Source: a virus (taxonomy: Duplodnaviria > Heunggongvirae > Uroviricota > Caudoviricetes). From it: a stretch of 64,000 nucleotides of DNA. The notes below the pieces were generated by a model. That model worked only from the letters and a program-made list of their open reading frames with translations. It did no database searches and was not told where the DNA came from. Shown here one piece after another: positions 27,134 to 56,968 of this stretch (its first letter is position 1; each line of letters opens with the position of its first letter). The stretch covers positions 1 to 64,000 of IMG/VR virus record IMGVR_UViG_2744054576_000007. One strand, written 5' to 3'. Made by a program: the position numbers and the translations under genes.

Positions 27134-27526
27134 TTATTCCAGCCTGACCAGTTTATTCAAATCAATTTCCATATAGGCTGCTATCCTAACTTCAACATCT
27201 CTTCTGATCTTAGACCAAAGGAAACGCAAGGTATGAGTATACCCACGACACAAGTACTCAGTTACTAAATCCTTGTCCGACCTAACCCCGTCAAAAACTT
27301 TTATGCCCCTCTGTCTCATTTTTTGACGAACAATTTTCAAATCCGCCAACACTCTACTTTGCAAGCCCTCTAGGTATAAAACAAACAATTCTTTCATCTT
27401 TAAGTCAGACTGTTTAATCTTTTTAAGGTTAAGCTCTAATACATCCAACACATAAGGTAGCTGTATAAAATCAATTACAAGCTGAGTGTCTTCATTAGAT
27501 GTTTTATAATTGCTCATGCTGAACAC
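27134..27526 (-). CDS. putative regulatory protein expressed from a LexA-box promoter
   Basis: 130 aa. The track start is GTG and an in-frame ATG lies 9 nt downstream. AGGAG ribosome-binding site. Promoter and Cheo box lie immediately upstream. Confidence 0.45.
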   Translation of the reverse strand: MFSMSNYKTSNEDTQLVIDFIQLPYVLDVLELNLKKIKQSDLKMKELFVLYLEGLQSRVLADLKIVRQKMRQRGIKVFDGVRSDKDLVTEYLCRGYTHTLRFLWSKIRRDVEVRIAAYMEIDLNKLVRLE

Positions 27527-27534
27527 ACACTCCT

Positions 27535-27548
27535 AGAACGTTTGTTCT
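27535..27548 (-). promoter_or_regulatory. Cheo/LexA-type SOS box AGAACGTTTGTTCT (GAAC-N4-GTTC)
   Basis: Perfect dyad. Minus-strand promoter -35 TTGAAT (27575-27580), 17-nt spacer, -10 TACACT (27552-27557). Box lies 3 nt downstream of the -10 and upstream of the ribosome-binding site of the 27134..27526 gene. Confidence 0.55.
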
Positions 27549-47279: not shown

Positions 47280-47660
47280 CTAGGCTAAGTACGCCAATCT
47301 AATCATTGCTGTATATTTTCCGTTTTTAGCGTAGGCATTATATATCTTCTCAGGATTATTCGTTTTAAATTTAACCAATATACATTTTTCCGCTTTTTCT
47401 TGGCACAATTTCTCTAAAGCTCTAACTTTGTCTTCTAAGTAATCAGTAATAAAATCTTCTTTATTTTTATATCCGAATTGATCGATTAATGCCCTTCTTT
47501 TCTTCCCAAGAAACTCCAACTCTAAGCCTTTTTGTTTACAACAGTAAAAGAACATTTCACTTCTATCGTCATTTGAACGTAAAAGAAAGCTCATCAAATT
47601 GATAACTATATCTGCCTTTTCAGGAATCTGTAATGCTTCGACTAGCTCTTCATGCTGCAT
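47280..47660 (-). CDS. hypothetical protein downstream of a LexA-box promoter
   Basis: 126-aa ORF. A ~150-nt leader separates it from the promoter and Cheo box at 47821-47874. Confidence 0.4.
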   Translation of the reverse strand: MQHEELVEALQIPEKADIVINLMSFLLRSNDDRSEMFFYCCKQKGLELEFLGKKRRALIDQFGYKNKEDFITDYLEDKVRALEKLCQEKAEKCILVKFKTNNPEKIYNAYAKNGKYTAMIRLAYLA

Positions 47661-47820: not shown

Positions 47821-47834
47821 AGAACATTTGTTCT
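47821..47834 (-). promoter_or_regulatory. Cheo/LexA-type SOS box AGAACATTTGTTCT
   Basis: Perfect GAAC-N4-GTTC dyad. Located 10 nt downstream of a minus-strand promoter: -35 TTGCAT (47869-47874), 18-nt spacer, -10 TATAAT (47845-47850). Confidence 0.55.
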
Positions 47835-47914: not shown

Positions 47915-48280
47915 TTACCTTTTGAAGTAACTTAGTATTTTTTTCAAGTGTATTGCAGTTACATCAACAAAAGAATTTTTAAGTCTGTTAACATAAATCT
48001 TGTAGCTCTTTTCATCTATGTGTTCAATTTTTCCTATCTGAACCATGCTTCCCCTACTTACTTTTTCGAACTCTGGTAGTTCTTGAAACAATCTCATCGT
48101 TTGATCTACTCTAGTCTCGTCTATGTATTCACCGTCATCGGTCAAATATATAAGTGTAGTTCTTCCGTTTTTTGTCTCAGATTTAAAGGCTTTTATTTCC
48201 CCCACTTGAAGCATAATCGCCTGATCATGTATTTTTTTACCTTCTCTTTTTACTACTTTGATTGTATCAGTTAACTTCAT
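47915..48280 (-). CDS. LytTR-family DNA-binding domain protein with no receiver domain
   Basis: 121 aa. IMLQVGEIKAFKSETKNGRTTLIYLTDDGEYI...FEKVSRGSMVQIGKIEHIDEKSYKIYVN aligns with the AgrA C-terminal LytTR domain (FFRCHRSFLVNLRHIKKID). Confidence 0.5.
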   Translation of the reverse strand: MKLTDTIKVVKREGKKIHDQAIMLQVGEIKAFKSETKNGRTTLIYLTDDGEYIDETRVDQTMRLFQELPEFEKVSRGSMVQIGKIEHIDEKSYKIYVNRLKNSFVDVTAIHLKKILSYFKR

Positions 48281-48356: not shown

Positions 48357-48476
48357 TTATTTTAATTCTTCAGGCACTGGTTCACCGCATACCAGCGTCC
48401 AACTAGCCAGATTCACTTCAGCTACGGTCAGCATCGTAAAAACGAATCCAACTAACATAATCAATTTGCTTTTCAT
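48357..48476 (-). CDS. agrD: AgrD-like autoinducing-peptide precursor (39 aa)
   Basis: Not in the track. Sequence MKSKLIMLVGFVFTMLTVAEVNLASWTLVCGEPVPEELK. N-terminal amphipathic/hydrophobic leader, a single Cys, and a C-terminal PVPEELK that resembles the LamD/AgrD tails IPDELRK and VPKELT. The ATG overlaps the AgrB-like stop (ATGA). Confidence 0.5.
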   Translation of the reverse strand: MKSKLIMLVGFVFTMLTVAEVNLASWTLVCGEPVPEELK

Positions 48477-49012
48477 TCTTCCTTTTCACCTCCCTTCAGG
48501 CGAATAAGAAGAATGCTTTGTACTAATATAGCTAGATTGGATATTGGATGGTTTATTAAATAAAATATTGAAACTAAAAACAATGAAATAATTTTAAACC
48601 ATTTATAATTCTCTTTTTTTACTTTCGTTTGATTTTGTATATCGCTTGGTGAGTAAATTAGAACTAAGAGCAAACTAACTATGAACATTATAAAAGTATG
48701 TGCAGTAAAATAGTAGCCAAGTTTAGAAATAAGAATTATCATTACTGTCGAAAAAATGATGCACTTTTCGGGAGTTTGAAAGTGAAACCCACCCGAAAAT
48801 ATTCTTAATAGTGAGAACCCAAGTATCGCCACCAAACTTTCTTTTAAATTGCCAAAAATTAGAGAAAACAATACTATCAAAAGAATTGGTATGGTATTTG
48901 TAATTATGAATTTTAAGGCATATCGGATGATCCCATACGAAGGTAACTCATCAGGATATTTATTTTTTAAGTGGTGGCTCACCCTATCAACAAAATGATC
49001 AATTATTCTCAT
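48473..49012 (-). CDS. agrB: AgrB-like membrane cysteine endopeptidase (AIP-processing enzyme)
   Basis: 179 aa, polytopic. LRIFSGGFHFQTPEKC places His and Cys with the same H-x7-C spacing as the S. aureus AgrB catalytic H77/C84 (RRHAHGAHAPSSFWC). Confidence 0.55.
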   Translation of the reverse strand: MRIIDHFVDRVSHHLKNKYPDELPSYGIIRYALKFIITNTIPILLIVLFSLIFGNLKESLVAILGFSLLRIFSGGFHFQTPEKCIIFSTVMIILISKLGYYFTAHTFIMFIVSLLLVLIYSPSDIQNQTKVKKENYKWFKIISLFLVSIFYLINHPISNLAILVQSILLIRLKGGEKEE

Positions 49013-49751: not shown

Positions 49752-50744
49752 TTATTCTACTTCAAGCACTTTTGGATATATTCTTGTTATTGTTTCTACA
49801 TTCAAAAAGTCTTTTGTGTACATTGTTGTATAAAATATTTCTCCATCTTTACTACCCACATTAAACTTTTTGCTTATTTCGTGTATATCGCTTCTTTCCA
49901 ACTTACCTTTTTTATCAATGTAAATGTCCTTTGCCATTTTTAACATTCCTGAATTTCTTATGTCTACAGGAGATAGTTTCTCCATATTCAATTTTGCAGC
50001 AAACTTTGTAATGGTTTGCGATATAAGCGTCTGCTTAACTTTTTCATCTTTAGTGCTCTTTATAATATATGAGCTGTCTTTAAGAGCACTATTTTTTTTG
50101 TTACTGAGACTTCCTTCTCCAAAATTTGAACTATAAGATGTCTCTTCATCAGCTCTTAGCATAGCTTCCAAAAGAAATTCACTAACAATTATTTCACGAT
50201 TTTCCACTTCCCCATATCGACCAACGTTTGTTAATTTTACTGTTCTAGTTGCTTGGTCTATATCTTGCCTTTTTAGATTCCTAATTTCAGAACATTCTCG
50301 TCCCATAATGCCTTCAAATATACTTTGGATTATAACAATATCTCTATTACTATCAATTTGACCAAGCGCTAACTCAAGATCGTCATCTCTTATAAGAATC
50401 TGCTTTGGAATAAACTTTTCGTAAAATTCTTTTCCATTAACAACATCCAATGGATTCAGGTTGTCAGCTCTAAGATCTTGAGAAATAGCCCACTCAATAT
50501 ATTTCTTAATAATTGATCCATATATAGTGGCTGAACTTAACTTATTGGGTGCCAGTAAATACATAACCTCTTCGATTTCAGACAGACTAAAATTGTACAA
50601 ATCTTTGTTGTACTTCATCTCAACTTTGCTTGCTCGTTTTAATTTACTTTCATAATTACCTCTTGTTGCTTTTCTATATCCATCTAAAAACCTTTGTTTT
50701 ATATCTGGATTATATAGATTATCTCCATATATACGGTTCATCAA
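49752..50744 (-). CDS. tyrosine-recombinase/integrase-like protein (divergent; catalytic box II degenerate)
   Basis: N-terminal SAM-like core-binding region. Box I GIMGRECSEIRNLKRQDID (R present). Box II reads VDIRNS instead of HxLRH. Candidate Tyr in EIFYTTMY. Confidence 0.35.
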   Translation of the reverse strand: MMNRIYGDNLYNPDIKQRFLDGYRKATRGNYESKLKRASKVEMKYNKDLYNFSLSEIEEVMYLLAPNKLSSATIYGSIIKKYIEWAISQDLRADNLNPLDVVNGKEFYEKFIPKQILIRDDDLELALGQIDSNRDIVIIQSIFEGIMGRECSEIRNLKRQDIDQATRTVKLTNVGRYGEVENREIIVSEFLLEAMLRADEETSYSSNFGEGSLSNKKNSALKDSSYIIKSTKDEKVKQTLISQTITKFAAKLNMEKLSPVDIRNSGMLKMAKDIYIDKKGKLERSDIHEISKKFNVGSKDGEIFYTTMYTKDFLNVETITRIYPKVLEVE

Positions 50745-50758
50745 TAAGACACCTCTTG

Positions 50759-52078
50759 TTATTTTATAGTGCGCTCAAAATATTTAATAAGTTCTCCCTG
50801 TAATTTCTTGTTGTCATATATTCTCTTCGATTCAAGAATTTCAATCAAATCACTATCTTCAAAATCGATCGCATCTATTACACTCTTCAAGCTTTTCAAT
50901 TCTCTATTCTCATCATAAAAACGTTTAGCAATAACCGTATACCCAAGGAACATAAAAGGATTGTTAATATAAGTGTGTTTATTGGGATTTTCAATAAATT
51001 CGTCGTAATAAAAGCCAATTAAATAACCAAAAAATTTAATTAAATATTCTGAGACTTCTCTGTACTCAACATAATTAGTTGGGTTAAATGTTTTTTCAAT
51101 TCCGAATGACAAAATACTAAAAGTTGTAAGTTGACCAACTTCTTTATTTGCCTTTCTGCTAGAAGCTATTCTAATCCCTCTTAGTTCACTAGTTGGATTA
51201 TTTTGCAATTCTTTTACCACGTTATCTGACTTCTTTTCCGCTTGCAGTTCTTTTCTTCTTTCCTTGCTCAATGGGTTTATGGTATTTATTTGACCAAAAT
51301 ATTGCTCTGCTGTGGTGTTGTCATATACTCTTATTGAAAGAGGAGATACAAAATGAATGTCTTCATTTGCGTTTAAAGCTTTAATTTGACCCTGGAATCG
51401 ATGATATCCATCGAGAATAGAAATTATACTTTTTTCGTTTATTGTGAGAGTATAATTTTCTTTATCATATGTCACAGGTTGGTGTTCGTATGCGAATACA
51501 TTAAAAGTAATTGTATCGGCAAGATAGCTTTGATTTAGAATTTTTTGAGCTATTTTTTTCACACTCGTTTGGTTAACAATGGGTGACTCCACTACACCAT
51601 CGCGAGTATTACCTTTGTATCTCATACCACGTTGGGAGCGTGGGTCATAATTAATTAATTGAGAATTGAACATTTGTACCAACATCTGTATAGTAATTTT
51701 TGTGGAATAAGATCTTTCATCTATTTGTATTACGTCTTCAAAAGTAATAGGCAATTTTAAATAATCTTTTTGATAGATCAATTTAATGTTTTCTTTTGCT
51801 TCGTTTATTTCATTATGGCTAAAATAATCCATTGCATCTATTATTGTATTACCAAGAACACTTTGCAAAACTTCTGTAATCACACATATAAGTGAAATAT
51901 CAGTATCTTGTAACAGTTTTGTGTTAATTATTATTTTATTATATTCTCCGTATGGAACTCCCAATGCACTCAAACGATCATTAATTTTTAAAAGGCTTTT
52001 CTTATCATTTTTATTTGATTCAACAATTTCAGTTAGACGCTGTTCTAATTCGCTTCTCTCTTTTTTCAATATCGTCAC
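50759..52078 (-). CDS. DUF262/ParB-like (GmrS/DndB-type DGQHR-like) domain protein
   Basis: NYDPRSQRGMRY (QR motif) and ISILDGYHRFQG (DGQQR/DGQHR-like motif). 439 aa. No HNH/DUF1524 C-terminal motif seen. Confidence 0.45.
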   Translation of the reverse strand: MTILKKERSELEQRLTEIVESNKNDKKSLLKINDRLSALGVPYGEYNKIIINTKLLQDTDISLICVITEVLQSVLGNTIIDAMDYFSHNEINEAKENIKLIYQKDYLKLPITFEDVIQIDERSYSTKITIQMLVQMFNSQLINYDPRSQRGMRYKGNTRDGVVESPIVNQTSVKKIAQKILNQSYLADTITFNVFAYEHQPVTYDKENYTLTINEKSIISILDGYHRFQGQIKALNANEDIHFVSPLSIRVYDNTTAEQYFGQINTINPLSKERRKELQAEKKSDNVVKELQNNPTSELRGIRIASSRKANKEVGQLTTFSILSFGIEKTFNPTNYVEYREVSEYLIKFFGYLIGFYYDEFIENPNKHTYINNPFMFLGYTVIAKRFYDENRELKSLKSVIDAIDFEDSDLIEILESKRIYDNKKLQGELIKYFERTIK

Positions 52079-53730: not shown

Positions 53731-54149
53731 ACAAGAACCTCCTTATCTTTTAAATTCTCAACAATTTCCTTTACTTTGTTTAAATTTATACCCTTGTTGT
53801 TTTTGTAATAATCTATATGTAGATCTACAGACTCTAGAGCTTTGCTAAAACATAAAACGCCATAATCTCTATAAATATTAACAAGAAAATAATTTGTCGC
53901 TTCTGTCTTTATTGCAATCTTATAAACTTTTCCTTCTATCATTGATCTGAAGGCTGAAACGTAAGCTAAAGCTAAGCCTCTATACATACCAGACAGCGCT
54001 ACAATGTCGTTAAGTGCATGATTTAATTCAATCTGATTATGAAATACTCTTTTTGCGTAATCATATGATGTTTTTATCATTAAATCTGTTATGACTTGTC
54101 CCATCATTTCACTCCTTTTGGTGAACCTGTAACCACTTGTCAACATCAA
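53727..54149 (-). CDS. hypothetical protein
   Basis: 140-aa ORF. Confidence 0.4.
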   Translation of the reverse strand: MMLTSGYRFTKRSEMMGQVITDLMIKTSYDYAKRVFHNQIELNHALNDIVALSGMYRGLALAYVSAFRSMIEGKVYKIAIKTEATNYFLVNIYRDYGVLCFSKALESVDLHIDYYKNNKGINLNKVKEIVENLKDKEVLV

Positions 54150-54324
54150 GGTTTGTTCTCACTACCCTGTTTTTCTTTGAATCCCATATACGGAACCCGT
54201 TTGCCATAAAATTGCTAAGTGTATGCTCGCTGTCGGCATTTGTGTTTGTAAATACCCAAGTTTCGAGCTTATGTTCTCTGTCGTACTCGGTTAGCTTCAT
54301 TAGGCAAAATCTTTTATTTTTCAT
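54109..54324 (-). CDS. hypothetical protein
   Basis: 71-aa ORF. First gene leftward of the divergent control region. Confidence 0.4.
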   Translation of the reverse strand: MKNKRFCLMKLTEYDREHKLETWVFTNTNADSEHTLSNFMANGFRIWDSKKNRVVRTNLDVDKWLQVHQKE

Positions 54325-54507
54325 ATATGCTCTCCATGATGTTGTCTATTATGCCGTTAATCTGATAGAATAAAATGACAAATTACTCCCTCTACAAAAG
54401 TAGGGAGATTTTGTTATGCCTTCTTTATGGAACGAAATTCGTTCCACTTGCTCTTAATTTATTATAAAAGGGGTTATTTTACATGTCAACTGCTTTTTTG
54501 GTGAAAT

Positions 54508-54729
54508 ATGTGGTGGTTTGAAATTACACTATCTCATATATTAGATAGAAAGGGTATTAGTAATAGGGAGTTGGCGCGCAGAACTGGCATTAGACCTGCA
54601 ACAATAAATAGCCTATGCAATAACACTGCAAAACAACTATCTTTCGACAACTTGGCTACTATATGCGAAGTCTTGGATATAGATCTTGATGAGATAATCC
54701 TTTTACATAAAGAAGAGAAACGGGATTAG
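54508..54729 (+). CDS. XRE/Cro-like HTH regulator
   Basis: NRELARRTGIRPATINSL HTH. GGTGA ribosome-binding site. 73 aa. Plus strand, diverging from the minus-strand genes across a region that contains palindromes. Confidence 0.6.
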   Translation: MWWFEITLSHILDRKGISNRELARRTGIRPATINSLCNNTAKQLSFDNLATICEVLDIDLDEIILLHKEEKRD

Positions 54730-54741
54730 TTTCCCGTTTCT
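54714..54741. terminator. bidirectional hairpin terminator between convergent XRE and mazF genes
   Basis: GAGAAACGGGA-ttagtt-TCCCGTTTCTT (10/11 bp) with T-rich flanks on both strands. Confidence 0.5.
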
Positions 54742-55128
54742 TTATCTCATTGCCAATGAAACTGATAATGCATCCACAATTTCATGACTATACTTATCTG
54801 GAAGTTCGGTAATTTTAAAATCTAATTGATCTTTGGATATAGTCATAATTTGTTCCAGCAAGATGATGCTATCGCTATATAGTCCTGTGTCTGTTCCACT
54901 TACTTTTACATGAGTAGGCATTTCTTTTTTTACACGTGATGTTACAGGAGCCACTATAACTACTGGAGAATACTTGTTTCCCATATTGTTTCCAATCACC
55001 ACACAAGGTCTTTCACCACTTTGTACGCTCCCTTTATTACTCCCTAAATGTACATTCCACATATCCAAGCGTTTAATTTCTTTTGTCATTCGATCCATTG
55101 CTACCGCCACTATGTAATCACTCCTCAT
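54742..55128 (-). CDS. mazF: MazF/PemK/EndoA-family endoribonuclease toxin
   Basis: SGERPCVVIGNNMGNKYSPVVIVAPVTS...PTHVKV...DSIILLEQIMTISKDQL...IVDALSVSLAM aligns closely with B. subtilis EndoA (NdoA). The likely start is the GTG at 55110 (GAGGAGTG ribosome-binding site) rather than the track ATG. Confidence 0.75.
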   Translation of the reverse strand: MRSDYIVAVAMDRMTKEIKRLDMWNVHLGSNKGSVQSGERPCVVIGNNMGNKYSPVVIVAPVTSRVKKEMPTHVKVSGTDTGLYSDSIILLEQIMTISKDQLDFKITELPDKYSHEIVDALSVSLAMR

Positions 55129-55225
55129 TAACTATTGTTTACTTCTCATCTTATTTTTATTTTTGCTACTAGTTAAATTCTATTATGTACTTTTCTAAAC
55201 TTATCTTTGCTCTTTCTATATGTAA

Positions 55226-55254
55226 TTATACTAACAAAAATAATTAAATACAAG
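55226..55254 (-). promoter_or_regulatory. sigma-A-type promoter of mazF
   Basis: On the minus strand: -35 TTGTAT (55249-55254), 17-nt spacer, -10 TATAAT (55226-55231). Confidence 0.5.
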
Positions 55255-55256
55255 AT

Positions 55257-55270
55257 GGAACGTTTGTTCT
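55257..55270 (-). promoter_or_regulatory. Cheo/LexA-type SOS box GGAACGTTTGTTCT abutting the mazF -35
   Basis: GAAC-N4-GTTC dyad 3-4 nt upstream of the mazF -35. The same dyad occurs at 27535 and 47821. Confidence 0.5.
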
Positions 55271-55375
55271 GTCAAGTTTTTTTCGTATCATACGAATATT
55301 TCCGTGGCTAAGTGCATAATTCTATTGACAACTGGATATACATAGTACTAAGGATATTTTCAGGGAGGAATATAG

Positions 55376-55894
55376 ATGCGACAAGACGCTTGGTCTCGAT
55401 CCGATGACGATCTGCTAGCTAAAACAGTGATTAACTATATAAGCAGTAACAAAACTCAATTAACTGCATTTCAGGAGGTTGGGAGTGAACTGAACCGCAC
55501 AGCGGCAGCCTGTGGATTTAGGTGGAATAGCGCCCTGAGACATAAATATCATAGTGAAATAAAAAAAGCAAAAGAACAAAGAAGGAATAATAAGAGAAGT
55601 CCAAAAAACAGAATCAATAACACAAAAATTCAAAAGACCGATATAAACTTTATGGACGAGATAGACAATGCTATCCAAGCCCTAAATAAATTAAGGATTG
55701 AATATCTAAATATGCAAGAAACCATACGTACACAGAATAACAAAATAACTGAATTAACTATAGATATCCAAGAAAGCAAAAAAGAAGATCGACAACCTAT
55801 TGCAAGTGACGATTTAGACACTTTACTTAAAATTTTACACAGAGCGGATCAGATACAAAAAAACATGTCTCAATACAAAGAACCTGCCATTTAA
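55376..55894 (+). CDS. rsfA: RsfA-family (prespore-specific regulator, Myb/SANT-like) transcription factor
   Basis: MRQDAWSRSDDDLLAKTV...TQLTAFQEVGSELNRTAAACGFRWNSALRHKY is near-identical in pattern to the B. subtilis RsfA N-terminal domain. AGGGAGGAA ribosome-binding site. Confidence 0.7.
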   Translation: MRQDAWSRSDDDLLAKTVINYISSNKTQLTAFQEVGSELNRTAAACGFRWNSALRHKYHSEIKKAKEQRRNNKRSPKNRINNTKIQKTDINFMDEIDNAIQALNKLRIEYLNMQETIRTQNNKITELTIDIQESKKEDRQPIASDDLDTLLKILHRADQIQKNMSQYKEPAI

Positions 55895-56665: not shown

Positions 56666-56968
56666 TCAAGAGAGTATTACCAATTGCGTATCATTATGTT
56701 TAAGTTTTTCTTTGAACATGTCTAAGGTTTCTTTGTTTCTACTAATTCGGGTTACGTCGGTCACAATAACAGCGTCAACTTCTGATAGATTATTGATAGC
56801 CAATTTTAAATCCACATCATTTGCAACCAAAACAATGTGAACAAGATTGATACCTTCTGACATTGTATACTGATTTATTTTACTTTTCTGTTCGTCTATG
56901 CCCCATTCAATAGACGATCTTACGATTGCCATAGCCTTCATGATTTTATACTCCTCTACTATTCGCAA
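56666..56968 (-). CDS. serine recombinase (resolvase/invertase) catalytic-domain-only protein; truncated remnant
   Basis: MKAMAIVRSSIEWGIDEQ and DAVIVTDVTRISRNKETLDMF match the resolvase N-terminal catalytic domain. No HTH domain. Only 100 aa. Confidence 0.45.
   Translation of the reverse strand: MRIVEEYKIMKAMAIVRSSIEWGIDEQKSKINQYTMSEGINLVHIVLVANDVDLKLAINNLSEVDAVIVTDVTRISRNKETLDMFKEKLKHNDTQLVILS

Follow-up and report, generated by a model that had tools for sequence, protein, structure and literature searches.

The gene described here lies on the minus strand at positions 54742..55110 of a 64,000-nt stretch of viral DNA (IMGVR_UViG_2744054576_000007, positions 1–64,000), referred to below as the window, and encodes a MazF-type protein without an antitoxin gene upstream. 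It is preceded by a conserved operator of the SOS (Cheo/LexA) type and stands at the head of an operon homologous to the sroA-F repressor operon of phage SPbeta. Taken together, these features suggest, with slightly less than even confidence, that the solitary MazF may be a built-in, LexA-repressed part of the lysis-lysogeny control region of an SPbeta-like Paenibacillus prophage.

The minus-strand open reading frame (ORF) 54742–55128, called mechanically up to an ATG at 55128, was found to be present. The gene proper, designated mazF here, runs from a GTG at 55110 to a TAA stop at 54742–54744 and encodes 122 aa. A Shine-Dalgarno (SD) sequence read from the DNA, AGGAGTGA at 55118..55125 (−), includes AGGAG at 55125–55121 and is placed for GTG 55110, while ATG 55128 has none; the element (A/G)GGAG(T/C)G is kept ahead of the mazF start in relatives. 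The closest MazF homologs are annotated at 121–123 aa, and distant homologs start with ATG-MAVAM, which aligns with (GTG)AVAM of the window. For these three reasons the GTG was taken as the start, as the initial annotation had proposed.

The product matched the PF02452 PemK_toxin profile of Pfam with an E value of 1e-24 and 87.3 bits (cutoff 23.1), over profile positions 1–108 of 109, when the hidden Markov model check was run. Among all solved structures, the best matches were those of B. subtilis EndoA/YdcE (4MDX, 1NE8, and 4ME7, E ~2e-23), with residues 18–127 aligned (110 residues) and a single one-residue gap; S. aureus and B. cereus MazF structures were matched as well. Identity to B. 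subtilis EndoA was 44% over the full length, and the motifs GERPCVVIGN, PTHV, and LLEQIMTISK, on which the earlier assignment to the EndoA type had relied, were all found.

Individual residues were compared in an 11-sequence protein alignment that included B. subtilis EndoA, whose numbering is used throughout. The equivalent of catalytic Arg25 (Arg34 in the window protein) was invariant and that of Thr48 (Thr57) was kept, with Ser in one relative; the roles of both residues in MazF catalysis are summarized in PMC8634880 and PMC10769878. Of the substrate-binding residues common to UACAU-type MazFs (Gly18, Glu20, Pro26, and Asn36), the equivalents of Gly18, Pro26, and Asn36 were kept, as were those of Glu78-Gln79. 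Within the mazF clade, purifying selection was evident, with nonsynonymous divergence (pN) of 0.06–0.30 against synonymous divergence (pS) of 0.61–0.75 at saturated synonymous sites, and dN/dS values of 0.05–0.3. The closest homologs all came from Paenibacillus, namely P. jamilae (98%), P. peoriae (90%), P. polymyxa, P. barcinonensis, and others.

A 12-residue N-terminal extension, MAVAM(E/D) followed by about seven residues (55075–55110, − strand), was conserved in the whole phage clade and is not found in canonical MazFs. A regulatory role, partner binding, or a degradation signal are all conceivable for it.

The region upstream of mazF had been described in the initial annotation as non-coding and carrying a Cheo box. 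Both statements agree with the present results, the box (GAAC-N4-GTTC, GAACGTTTGTTC) being located at 55258..55269. Three GAAC-N4-GTTC sites were observed in the window against 0.53 expected, a number reached in only one of 100 shuffles, and all three lie just 5' of minus-strand ORFs.

Conservation was examined in two sets of sequences. The first was an alignment of the intergenic region between mazF and the divergent RsfA-family gene, comprising the window and 11 relatives (n = 12, locus L013 among them), with locus L053 examined separately. The second comprised 24 related viral contigs found via their DndB-like protein, of which 19 carried mazF and five lacked it. A profile search of genome contigs with an RsfA alignment returned mostly chromosomal RsfA/GerR genes, L053 being the sole informative locus; because that scan was swamped in this way, co-occurrence was counted on the viral contigs with a DndB-like protein.

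All 12 aligned intergenic regions kept the exact SOS box, as did L053 and 16 of the 19 MazF-bearing viral contigs. In close relatives, a 20-nt block around the box was invariant, while its flanks diverged and were unalignable in places. Since the synonymous sites of mazF are saturated between the same lineages, this block represents a strong phylogenetic footprint.

Directly abutting the box, a TTGACA (55275–55270) preceded by a UP-like A-tract was found at 55270..55283 (−). This block, CTTGACAGAACAAACGTTCC, was identical in 11 of the 12 aligned sequences, as was CTTGACA-GAACAAACGTTCC. In L013, whose MazF is 46% identical, the corresponding sequence was CTTGACA-A-GAACAAAAGTTCC, with an inserted A, and the same arrangement was observed with GAACAAATGTTC in L053, whose MazF is 43% identical. 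The invariant TTGACA may be a second −35 element or a part of the operator.

A putative sigma-A promoter of mazF was read from the sequence at 55225..55253 (−), consisting of TTGTAT (55253–55248), a 17-nt spacer, and TATAAT (55230–55225). The relatives examined had TTGnnn-17-TATAAT in the corresponding position. The promoter had been missed by a consensus scan because its −35 element matches at three of six positions. Taken on its sequence conservation, the predicted SOS control of mazF is well supported comparatively.

The second SOS box, at 47822..47833, lies 5' of orf126 (47280–47660, −) at the far end of the lysogeny module. Most relatives contained exactly two boxes per 14–21 kb, of which one preceded mazF and the other the orf126 homolog; at the latter the arms were fixed and the N4 spacer was variable. 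The orf126 product is basic (isoelectric point 8.3) and no obvious DNA mimic. The third perfect box, at 27536–27547, is located just ahead of the ribosome-binding site of orf130 (27134–27526), which gave no family match.

The absence of an upstream antitoxin gene, claimed in the initial annotation, stands. Between GTG 55110 and the divergent gene (55111–55375, 265 nt), no ORF of at least 20 aa with a ribosome site was detected; the sole minus-strand ORF of that length is a 26-aa TTG ORF overlapping the promoter, for which coding is not plausible. An upstream antitoxin gene was likewise not found in any relative examined, whether in the 12 aligned regions, L053, or the viral contigs. The adjacent, co-transcribed antitoxin of mazEF-type operons is thus missing here, and mazF has its own promoter and terminator.

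An RNA antitoxin or a structured leader was considered and rejected. The upstream region contained no tandem repeats, and therefore no ToxI-type RNA, and gave no Rfam match above noise; no good antisense promoter was found within mazF. The predicted mazF leader of about 110 nt was unstructured (z +0.96), folding less stably than shuffles.

The rest of the 64-kb window was searched by tblastn with B. subtilis MazE, both full length and as its MazF-binding C-terminus, and with SPbeta YosL, and no similarity to these queries was found. The MazE query had been verified against 4ME7_E. When MazE, YosL, YopM, YopN, YopS, YopT, and YopU were considered together, the best E values were ~0.002–0.07 and corresponded to XRE-type or chance matches. 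Among the nearest non-Paenibacillus relatives, the Clostridia chromosomal loci L019 and L020 (P0033, P0022), no MazE was called directly upstream of mazF either; one gene lies 18 nt after a Carb_kinase gene and the other after a 345-nt uncalled gap behind a helix-turn-helix (HTH) gene. Solitary MazF genes may be commoner than assumed.

Near-identity DNA searches with three stretches of the window (3–25 kb) against GenBank phages returned a tRNA match only, so that no close sequenced relative is present among them. Large genes of the window match phage replication functions (RecJ-like, DnaB-like, and primase), and a tRNA-Met is present. The neighborhoods common to the window and its Paenibacillus homologs comprise genes for DndB-domain and MrpR-type integrase-fold proteins, AgrB, a small peptide, YorF, and AAA_24, and the order YorF, YorG-like, helicase, primase, and RecJ-like parallels that of SPbeta. 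With tblastn, SPbeta YopQ matched a YopQ/SroE-like, DndB-domain gene at 50759..52078 (−, E 8e-39), and SPbeta YopR a YopR/MrpR/SroF-like repressor gene at 49752..50744 (−, E 6e-27); the Pfam domains DndB, MrpR_N_CB, and MrpR_C_cat were found on homologs of this pair. Because of the Paenibacillus homologs, the YopQ and YopR homologs, and the SPbeta-like gene order, the window belongs, as judged from its gene content, to an SPbeta-like prophage of the P. polymyxa group, which agrees with the phage origin assumed earlier. Related IMG/VR contigs measure 100–218 kb; in UViG_2919361683_000002 and UViG_2922690425_000004, protein identity to the MazF, XRE, and DndB-like genes of the window was 97–100%.

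The DndB-like and MrpR-like genes follow orf71 in an operon, referred to as sro-like, which is driven by a perfect promoter at 54461..54489 (−; TTGACA-17-TATAAT, 12 of 12 positions). In SPbeta, aimR-aimP lies directly 5' of yopM-yopR (sroA-F), and here that place is filled by mazF and a convergent XRE/Cro-type gene. No AimR homolog was found in the window (tblastn, best E 1.1). Within the lysogeny module, an AgrB-like membrane protein is encoded at 48473–49012 (−), with a 39-aa AgrD-like propeptide (48357–48476, −; ...WTLVCGEPVPEELK) immediately 3' of it and a 121-aa protein (47915–48280, −), whose homologs give weak LytTR matches, after the pair. The agr pair was kept 3' of the MrpR-like gene in most relatives. 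As the window holds no AimR homolog, this pair may replace arbitrium signaling.

The distribution of UACAU, the EndoA cleavage site, was determined on the coding strand as TACAT. One UACAUA, a candidate self-cleavage site, lies between the SD sequence and the start of mazF (55111..55116, −), and comparison of leaders revealed a second one within a conserved GTACATA element (55184..55189, −). Across the 140 nt preceding the start in 19 leaders, 26 TACAT were counted against 5.8 expected, with two in the antisense control. TACAT occupied position −6 in seven of the 19 leaders and the SD-start spacer in two more, in which the start had been set too far downstream. The SD-start site was kept even in lineages with ~40% MazF identity.

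Beyond the leader, TACAT density in the window was 0.68/kb for the sro-like operon and 2.16/kb for the other 104 ORFs. The latter exceeded synonymous-codon shuffles (102 vs. 74–77 ± 7), while the sro-like operon of the window alone was not significantly below them (3 vs. 5.6). When the operon was pooled over five lineages, 17 TACAT were observed against 37.4 expected in coding sequences only, the most depleted of 637 pentamers, and 23 against 46.5 in whole regions, the most depleted of 688. In the DndB and MrpR genes of 13 dereplicated MazF-bearing viral contigs, 26 were observed against 66.3, with values below the rest of the locus in all 13.

This pattern mirrors published statements that phi3T and SPbeta transcripts are UACAU-enriched (bioRxiv 10.1101/2023.04.27.537455) and that MazF spares the sroF operon (bioRxiv 10.1101/2025.11.27.690993). 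Over the whole window, the hexamer TACATA occurred 81 times on the coding (minus) strand and 28 times on the other, against 27–36 expected under Markov models of order 1–3. It was often located right after a TATAAT-like −10 element or between an SD sequence and ATG (e.g., 46717, 13232, and 9316). Such positions would suit a promoter or initial-transcribed motif, MazF target sites, or the two combined.

Under the reading favored here, LexA would hold mazF off in the lysogen, and transcriptional silence would largely stand in for a cis antitoxin. DNA damage would then de-repress mazF together with other SOS-boxed phage genes. If the enzyme cuts UACAU-type sites like EndoA, it would also cut the UACAUA sites of its own leader, and on this basis expression of mazF is probably self-limiting. 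MazF would strike UACAU-rich phage (and host) transcripts and spare the UACAU-poor repressor operon, and would in this way restrain lytic development or add a second checkpoint to it, as host MazF has been shown to do in phi3T. A protein neutralizer, if any, would act in trans; the orf71 product is the best candidate by co-occurrence, with host MazE or a MazE mimic encoded outside the window as alternatives. A broader proposal, that SPbeta-like Paenibacillus phages have internalized the MazF arm in an antitoxin-free form, kept safe by LexA and self-cleavage, pruning UACAU-rich lytic transcripts after DNA damage but sparing the repressor operon, and working with an agr-type peptide signal in place of arbitrium, is rather doubtful, though a serious possibility.

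Several observations weigh against the LexA-repressed checkpoint. The catalytic Arg25 and Thr48 equivalents are kept, but Val (Val29 in the window protein) replaces the substrate-binding residue Glu20 in the window and, with a single exception, in the other phage-clade sequences aligned; the equivalents of B. subtilis Arg81, Arg87, Pro15, and Gly6 are altered as well. In MazF-Da, an E20A substitution left little activity, and E24A was reported to abolish cleavage by E. coli MazF (PMC8634880). On account of these changes, activity or specificity may differ from those of EndoA: membership in the MazF family (PF02452) is secure, EndoA-like activity and specificity are not. Sequence-specific RNase activity is indicated only indirectly, by the strong purifying selection and the UACAU counts.

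On the regulatory side, the SOS box is degenerate or lost in three of the 19 MazF-bearing viral contigs (L112, L113, and L115) with mazF retained, from which it follows that LexA is not the sole safeguard and that another must exist. The box also lies ~30 nt 5' of the best −10/−35 pair, which makes the geometry of the presumed repression hard to read, and a lytic brake induced by the SOS response is counter-intuitive. As for the motif statistics, part of the TACAT signal in leaders could reflect a promoter or operator motif, since TACATA follows other −10 elements. The DndB and MrpR genes of four MazF-lacking contigs displayed the same tendency (8 vs. 15.4, a trend only), and, as this trend is present without a phage mazF, UACAU-poor repressor genes may serve host MazF and are not specific evidence for the phage enzyme. 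The pooled P values overstate independence because the lineages are related, and the path from a conserved operator and motif counts to a mechanism is one of inference.

Of the other explanations considered, the one that survives best is a toxin–antitoxin (TA) pair in reverse order, in which the product of orf71 (54109..54324, −, 71 aa, the first gene of the sro-like operon) would be an antitoxin of an unrecognized family that binds MazF, and the XRE gene and extra promoters would have been inserted between the two genes in some lineages, the present one among them. Homologs of orf71 were present in 19 of 19 MazF-bearing and one of five MazF-lacking viral contigs, as well as in L001–L012 and L053. 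In L009–L011 and L113–L115, orf71 follows directly 3' of mazF at ~70 nt with no XRE gene between, and the single MazF-lacking carrier, L110, has an orphan orf71 resembling an antitoxin remnant. In contrast, the two genes form separate transcription units in the window, kept apart by the terminator, the convergent XRE gene, and the perfect promoter, and in L009 a promoter also lies ahead of orf68. Their co-occurrence may be mere linkage, given that orf71 opens the repressor operon, at the sroA position; no orf71 was detected in the MazF-bearing earlier locus L013, and the protein gave neither a Pfam match nor a DNA-binding domain. A reverse-order pair is considered unlikely.

A second alternative is an RNase for host take-over during induction, freed by the SOS response, which would degrade host mRNA and accelerate the lytic program in a doomed cell where no antitoxin is needed. 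The initial annotation had likewise proposed host shut-off. The SOS box shared with other phage genes expected to fire at induction would suit such a role, as would a monocistronic mazF on the same strand as the bulk of the phage genes. Solitary genes annotated as "MazF-like growth inhibitor" are also carried by other phages, a virulent Lactobacillus phage among them; examples are Thomasclavelia phage TR-TP2 (gp7), Lactobacillus phage 3-521 (gp39), and Coprococcus phages. They resemble the window gene in being phage-borne PemK/MazF genes of ~40% identity without an annotated MazE upstream, and differ from it in genomic contexts unrelated to this locus. The avoidance of UACAU by phage genes that host shut-off leads one to expect was tested, and the opposite was observed: phage genes exceed chance in UACAU and would not be spared if specificity is EndoA-like, and the UACAU-poor genes are those of the repressor rather than lytic ones. 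Moreover, MazF activity suppresses the lytic cycle of phi3T (PMC10769878). Host shut-off that spares the phage is thus a poor fit under EndoA-like specificity, and take-over is regarded as decidedly unlikely.

Only a slight chance is given to the third alternative, a weakened MazF-like decoy that titrates host MazE, like phi3T_93, and thereby frees host MazF. The replacement of Glu20 by Val and the changes at other residues typical of UACAU-type MazFs (PMC8634880) would be explained, the MazE-binding protein of phi3T is known to promote lysogeny (PMC10769878), and the sparing of repressor genes is independent of phage mazF carriage. A decoy is harder to reconcile with the strong purifying selection under which the equivalents of Arg25, Thr48, Gly18, Pro26, Asn36, and Glu78-Gln79 are kept, and the conserved UACAU sites in the mazF leader suit an active enzyme.

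The idea that the convergent XRE/Cro-like protein (54508..54729, +, 73 aa, HTH_26 E 2.5e-17) neutralizes MazF, in trans as the initial annotation had suggested or via antisense read-through, is scarcely credible: the gene is adjacent, with 12 nt between the stop codons, XRE-type antitoxins are known in other TA families (weak HigA/HipB matches, E ~2e-3, far below cutoff), and the pairing recurs in lineages with ~40–46% MazF identity, yet it is absent from six MazF-bearing loci (L009–L011 and L113–L115), lies 5.3 kb from mazF beside the repressor operon in L013, and stands back-to-back with the repressor-operon promoter in a Cro/CI-like layout.

When the phage MazF is compared with the type II ndoAI-ndoA operon of EndoA, fold family, full-length identity, and kept catalytic equivalents are shared, and the EndoA site is over-represented in the phage mazF leader. 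In contrast, the phage gene is prophage-borne and monocistronic, stands behind a LexA-type operator, and has no MazE/EndoAI gene in 64 kb; its protein carries the N-terminal extension and the residue changes described above.

A closer parallel is offered by the network of arbitrium, sroA-F, and host MazEF in phi3T and SPbeta. In phi3T, host MazF promotes lysogeny and suppresses the lytic cycle, AimX and YosL neutralize MazF, and phi3T_93 binds MazE and promotes lysogeny (PMC10769878). Homologous repressor genes, UACAU-rich transcripts, and a UACAU-poor repressor operon are common to that network and the window, and both show a genetic link between a MazF-type RNase and the lysis-lysogeny module. 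The two differ in that host MazF acts there with the phage inhibitors AimX and YosL and the MazE binder phi3T_93, while MazF is phage-encoded here; agrB/agrD-like genes are present in place of arbitrium, and no YosL-type MazE mimic was detected in the window.

The sar antirepressor of SPbeta and phi3T is LexA-controlled, and Sar is a small DNA mimic that inactivates SroF (bioRxiv 10.1101/2025.11.27.690993). Like sar, mazF is a phage gene at the edge of an sro module behind a B. subtilis-type SOS box, and the box at 47822 occupies a sar-analogous position. Unlike Sar, the mazF product is a homolog of an RNase toxin. As antitoxin-less phage MazF annotations are common, an orphan MazF alone is not new; the novelty lies in three features occurring together, namely the conserved SOS operator, the place of the gene in front of a repressor operon of the SPbeta type, and the distribution of UACAU. 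No description of an SOS box on a MazF gene, or of the whole arrangement, was found in literature searches.

With regard to neighboring genes, a hairpin with perfect 10-bp arms (54716–54725/54732–54741) and a 6-nt loop lies between the mazF and XRE stop codons at 54716..54741. The bidirectional terminator suggested earlier holds as far as the hairpin is concerned; the scan called a terminator on the mazF strand alone, the plus-strand T-run being weaker. The XRE protein is weakly similar to SPbeta YopO (E 0.002). Owing to its absence or displacement in several MazF-bearing lineages, it was rejected as MazF partner; its gene belongs to the control region of the neighboring operon and is not obligately paired with mazF. 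Nor is it the sole neighbor, as had been thought, the divergent RsfA gene and downstream orf71 being more constant.

The divergent gene at 55376..55894 (+) encodes an RsfA-family regulator (TIGR02894, 134.1 bits, cutoff 126.45) and shares its control region with mazF. It was adjacent and divergent to mazF in all 11 earlier loci reaching that far and in L053, was undetected in the MazF-bearing contigs L109, L111, and L120, and was present without MazF in L107. An obligate partner or antitoxin role was ruled out, since the protein is a complete RsfA without an extra domain and occurs apart from MazF. It is a full-length, sporulation-type Myb-like regulator. Its gene is preceded by a conserved block, TGCATAA...TATTGACAA..GGATATACATA, which we take to resemble forespore-type promoters. 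Further 5', a gene at 56666–56968 (−) encodes a protein of ~91–100 aa, recurring in MazF-lacking L107 (8925–9200), that matches only the N-terminal part of the resolvase domain; it is perhaps a truncated protein or a domain that functions by itself.

Two elements were noted in the leader of the sro-like operon (54330–54460, −): a palindrome, TGGAACGAAATTCGTTCCA, and a hairpin resembling a terminator, CTCCCTAC-TTTT-GTAGAGGGAG, with a T-rich tail. This part of the leader may serve attenuation or antitermination and recalls the AimR-controlled terminator ahead of aimX in phi3T. In the window as a whole, GGACC was observed zero times and GGTCC once, against ~10 expected for each, and CCTGG and CCAGG were also strongly avoided, which suggests selection against GGWCC- and CCWGG-specific restriction systems.

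SPbeta-family phages are known to use host MazEF in deciding between lysis and lysogeny, and LexA-controlled phage genes are known to trigger their induction. The locus described here suggests that the phages of a sister group encode a MazF of their own, with an SOS operator in front of it, the homologous repressor operon following, and no gene for an antitoxin. Were the protein active, it would provide a tractable example of a type II toxin held in check by repression of its transcription, and possibly by self-cleavage of its mRNA, instead of by a cis antitoxin, along with a natural experiment on UACAU-rich lytic genes versus a UACAU-poor repressor operon and a candidate new MazF partner in orf71. 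Should the MazF arm indeed have been internalized, this MazF would be the first one encoded by a phage to have a defined part in the lysis-lysogeny decision, and it would illustrate how a type II toxin can be controlled in the absence of an antitoxin of its own. The locus also counsels caution with "orphan" phage MazF genes, which may belong to the regulatory equipment of the phage instead of being defense or addiction modules, and it bears on the currently active question of how MazF and SOS control shape the lysis-lysogeny decisions of the SPbeta family.

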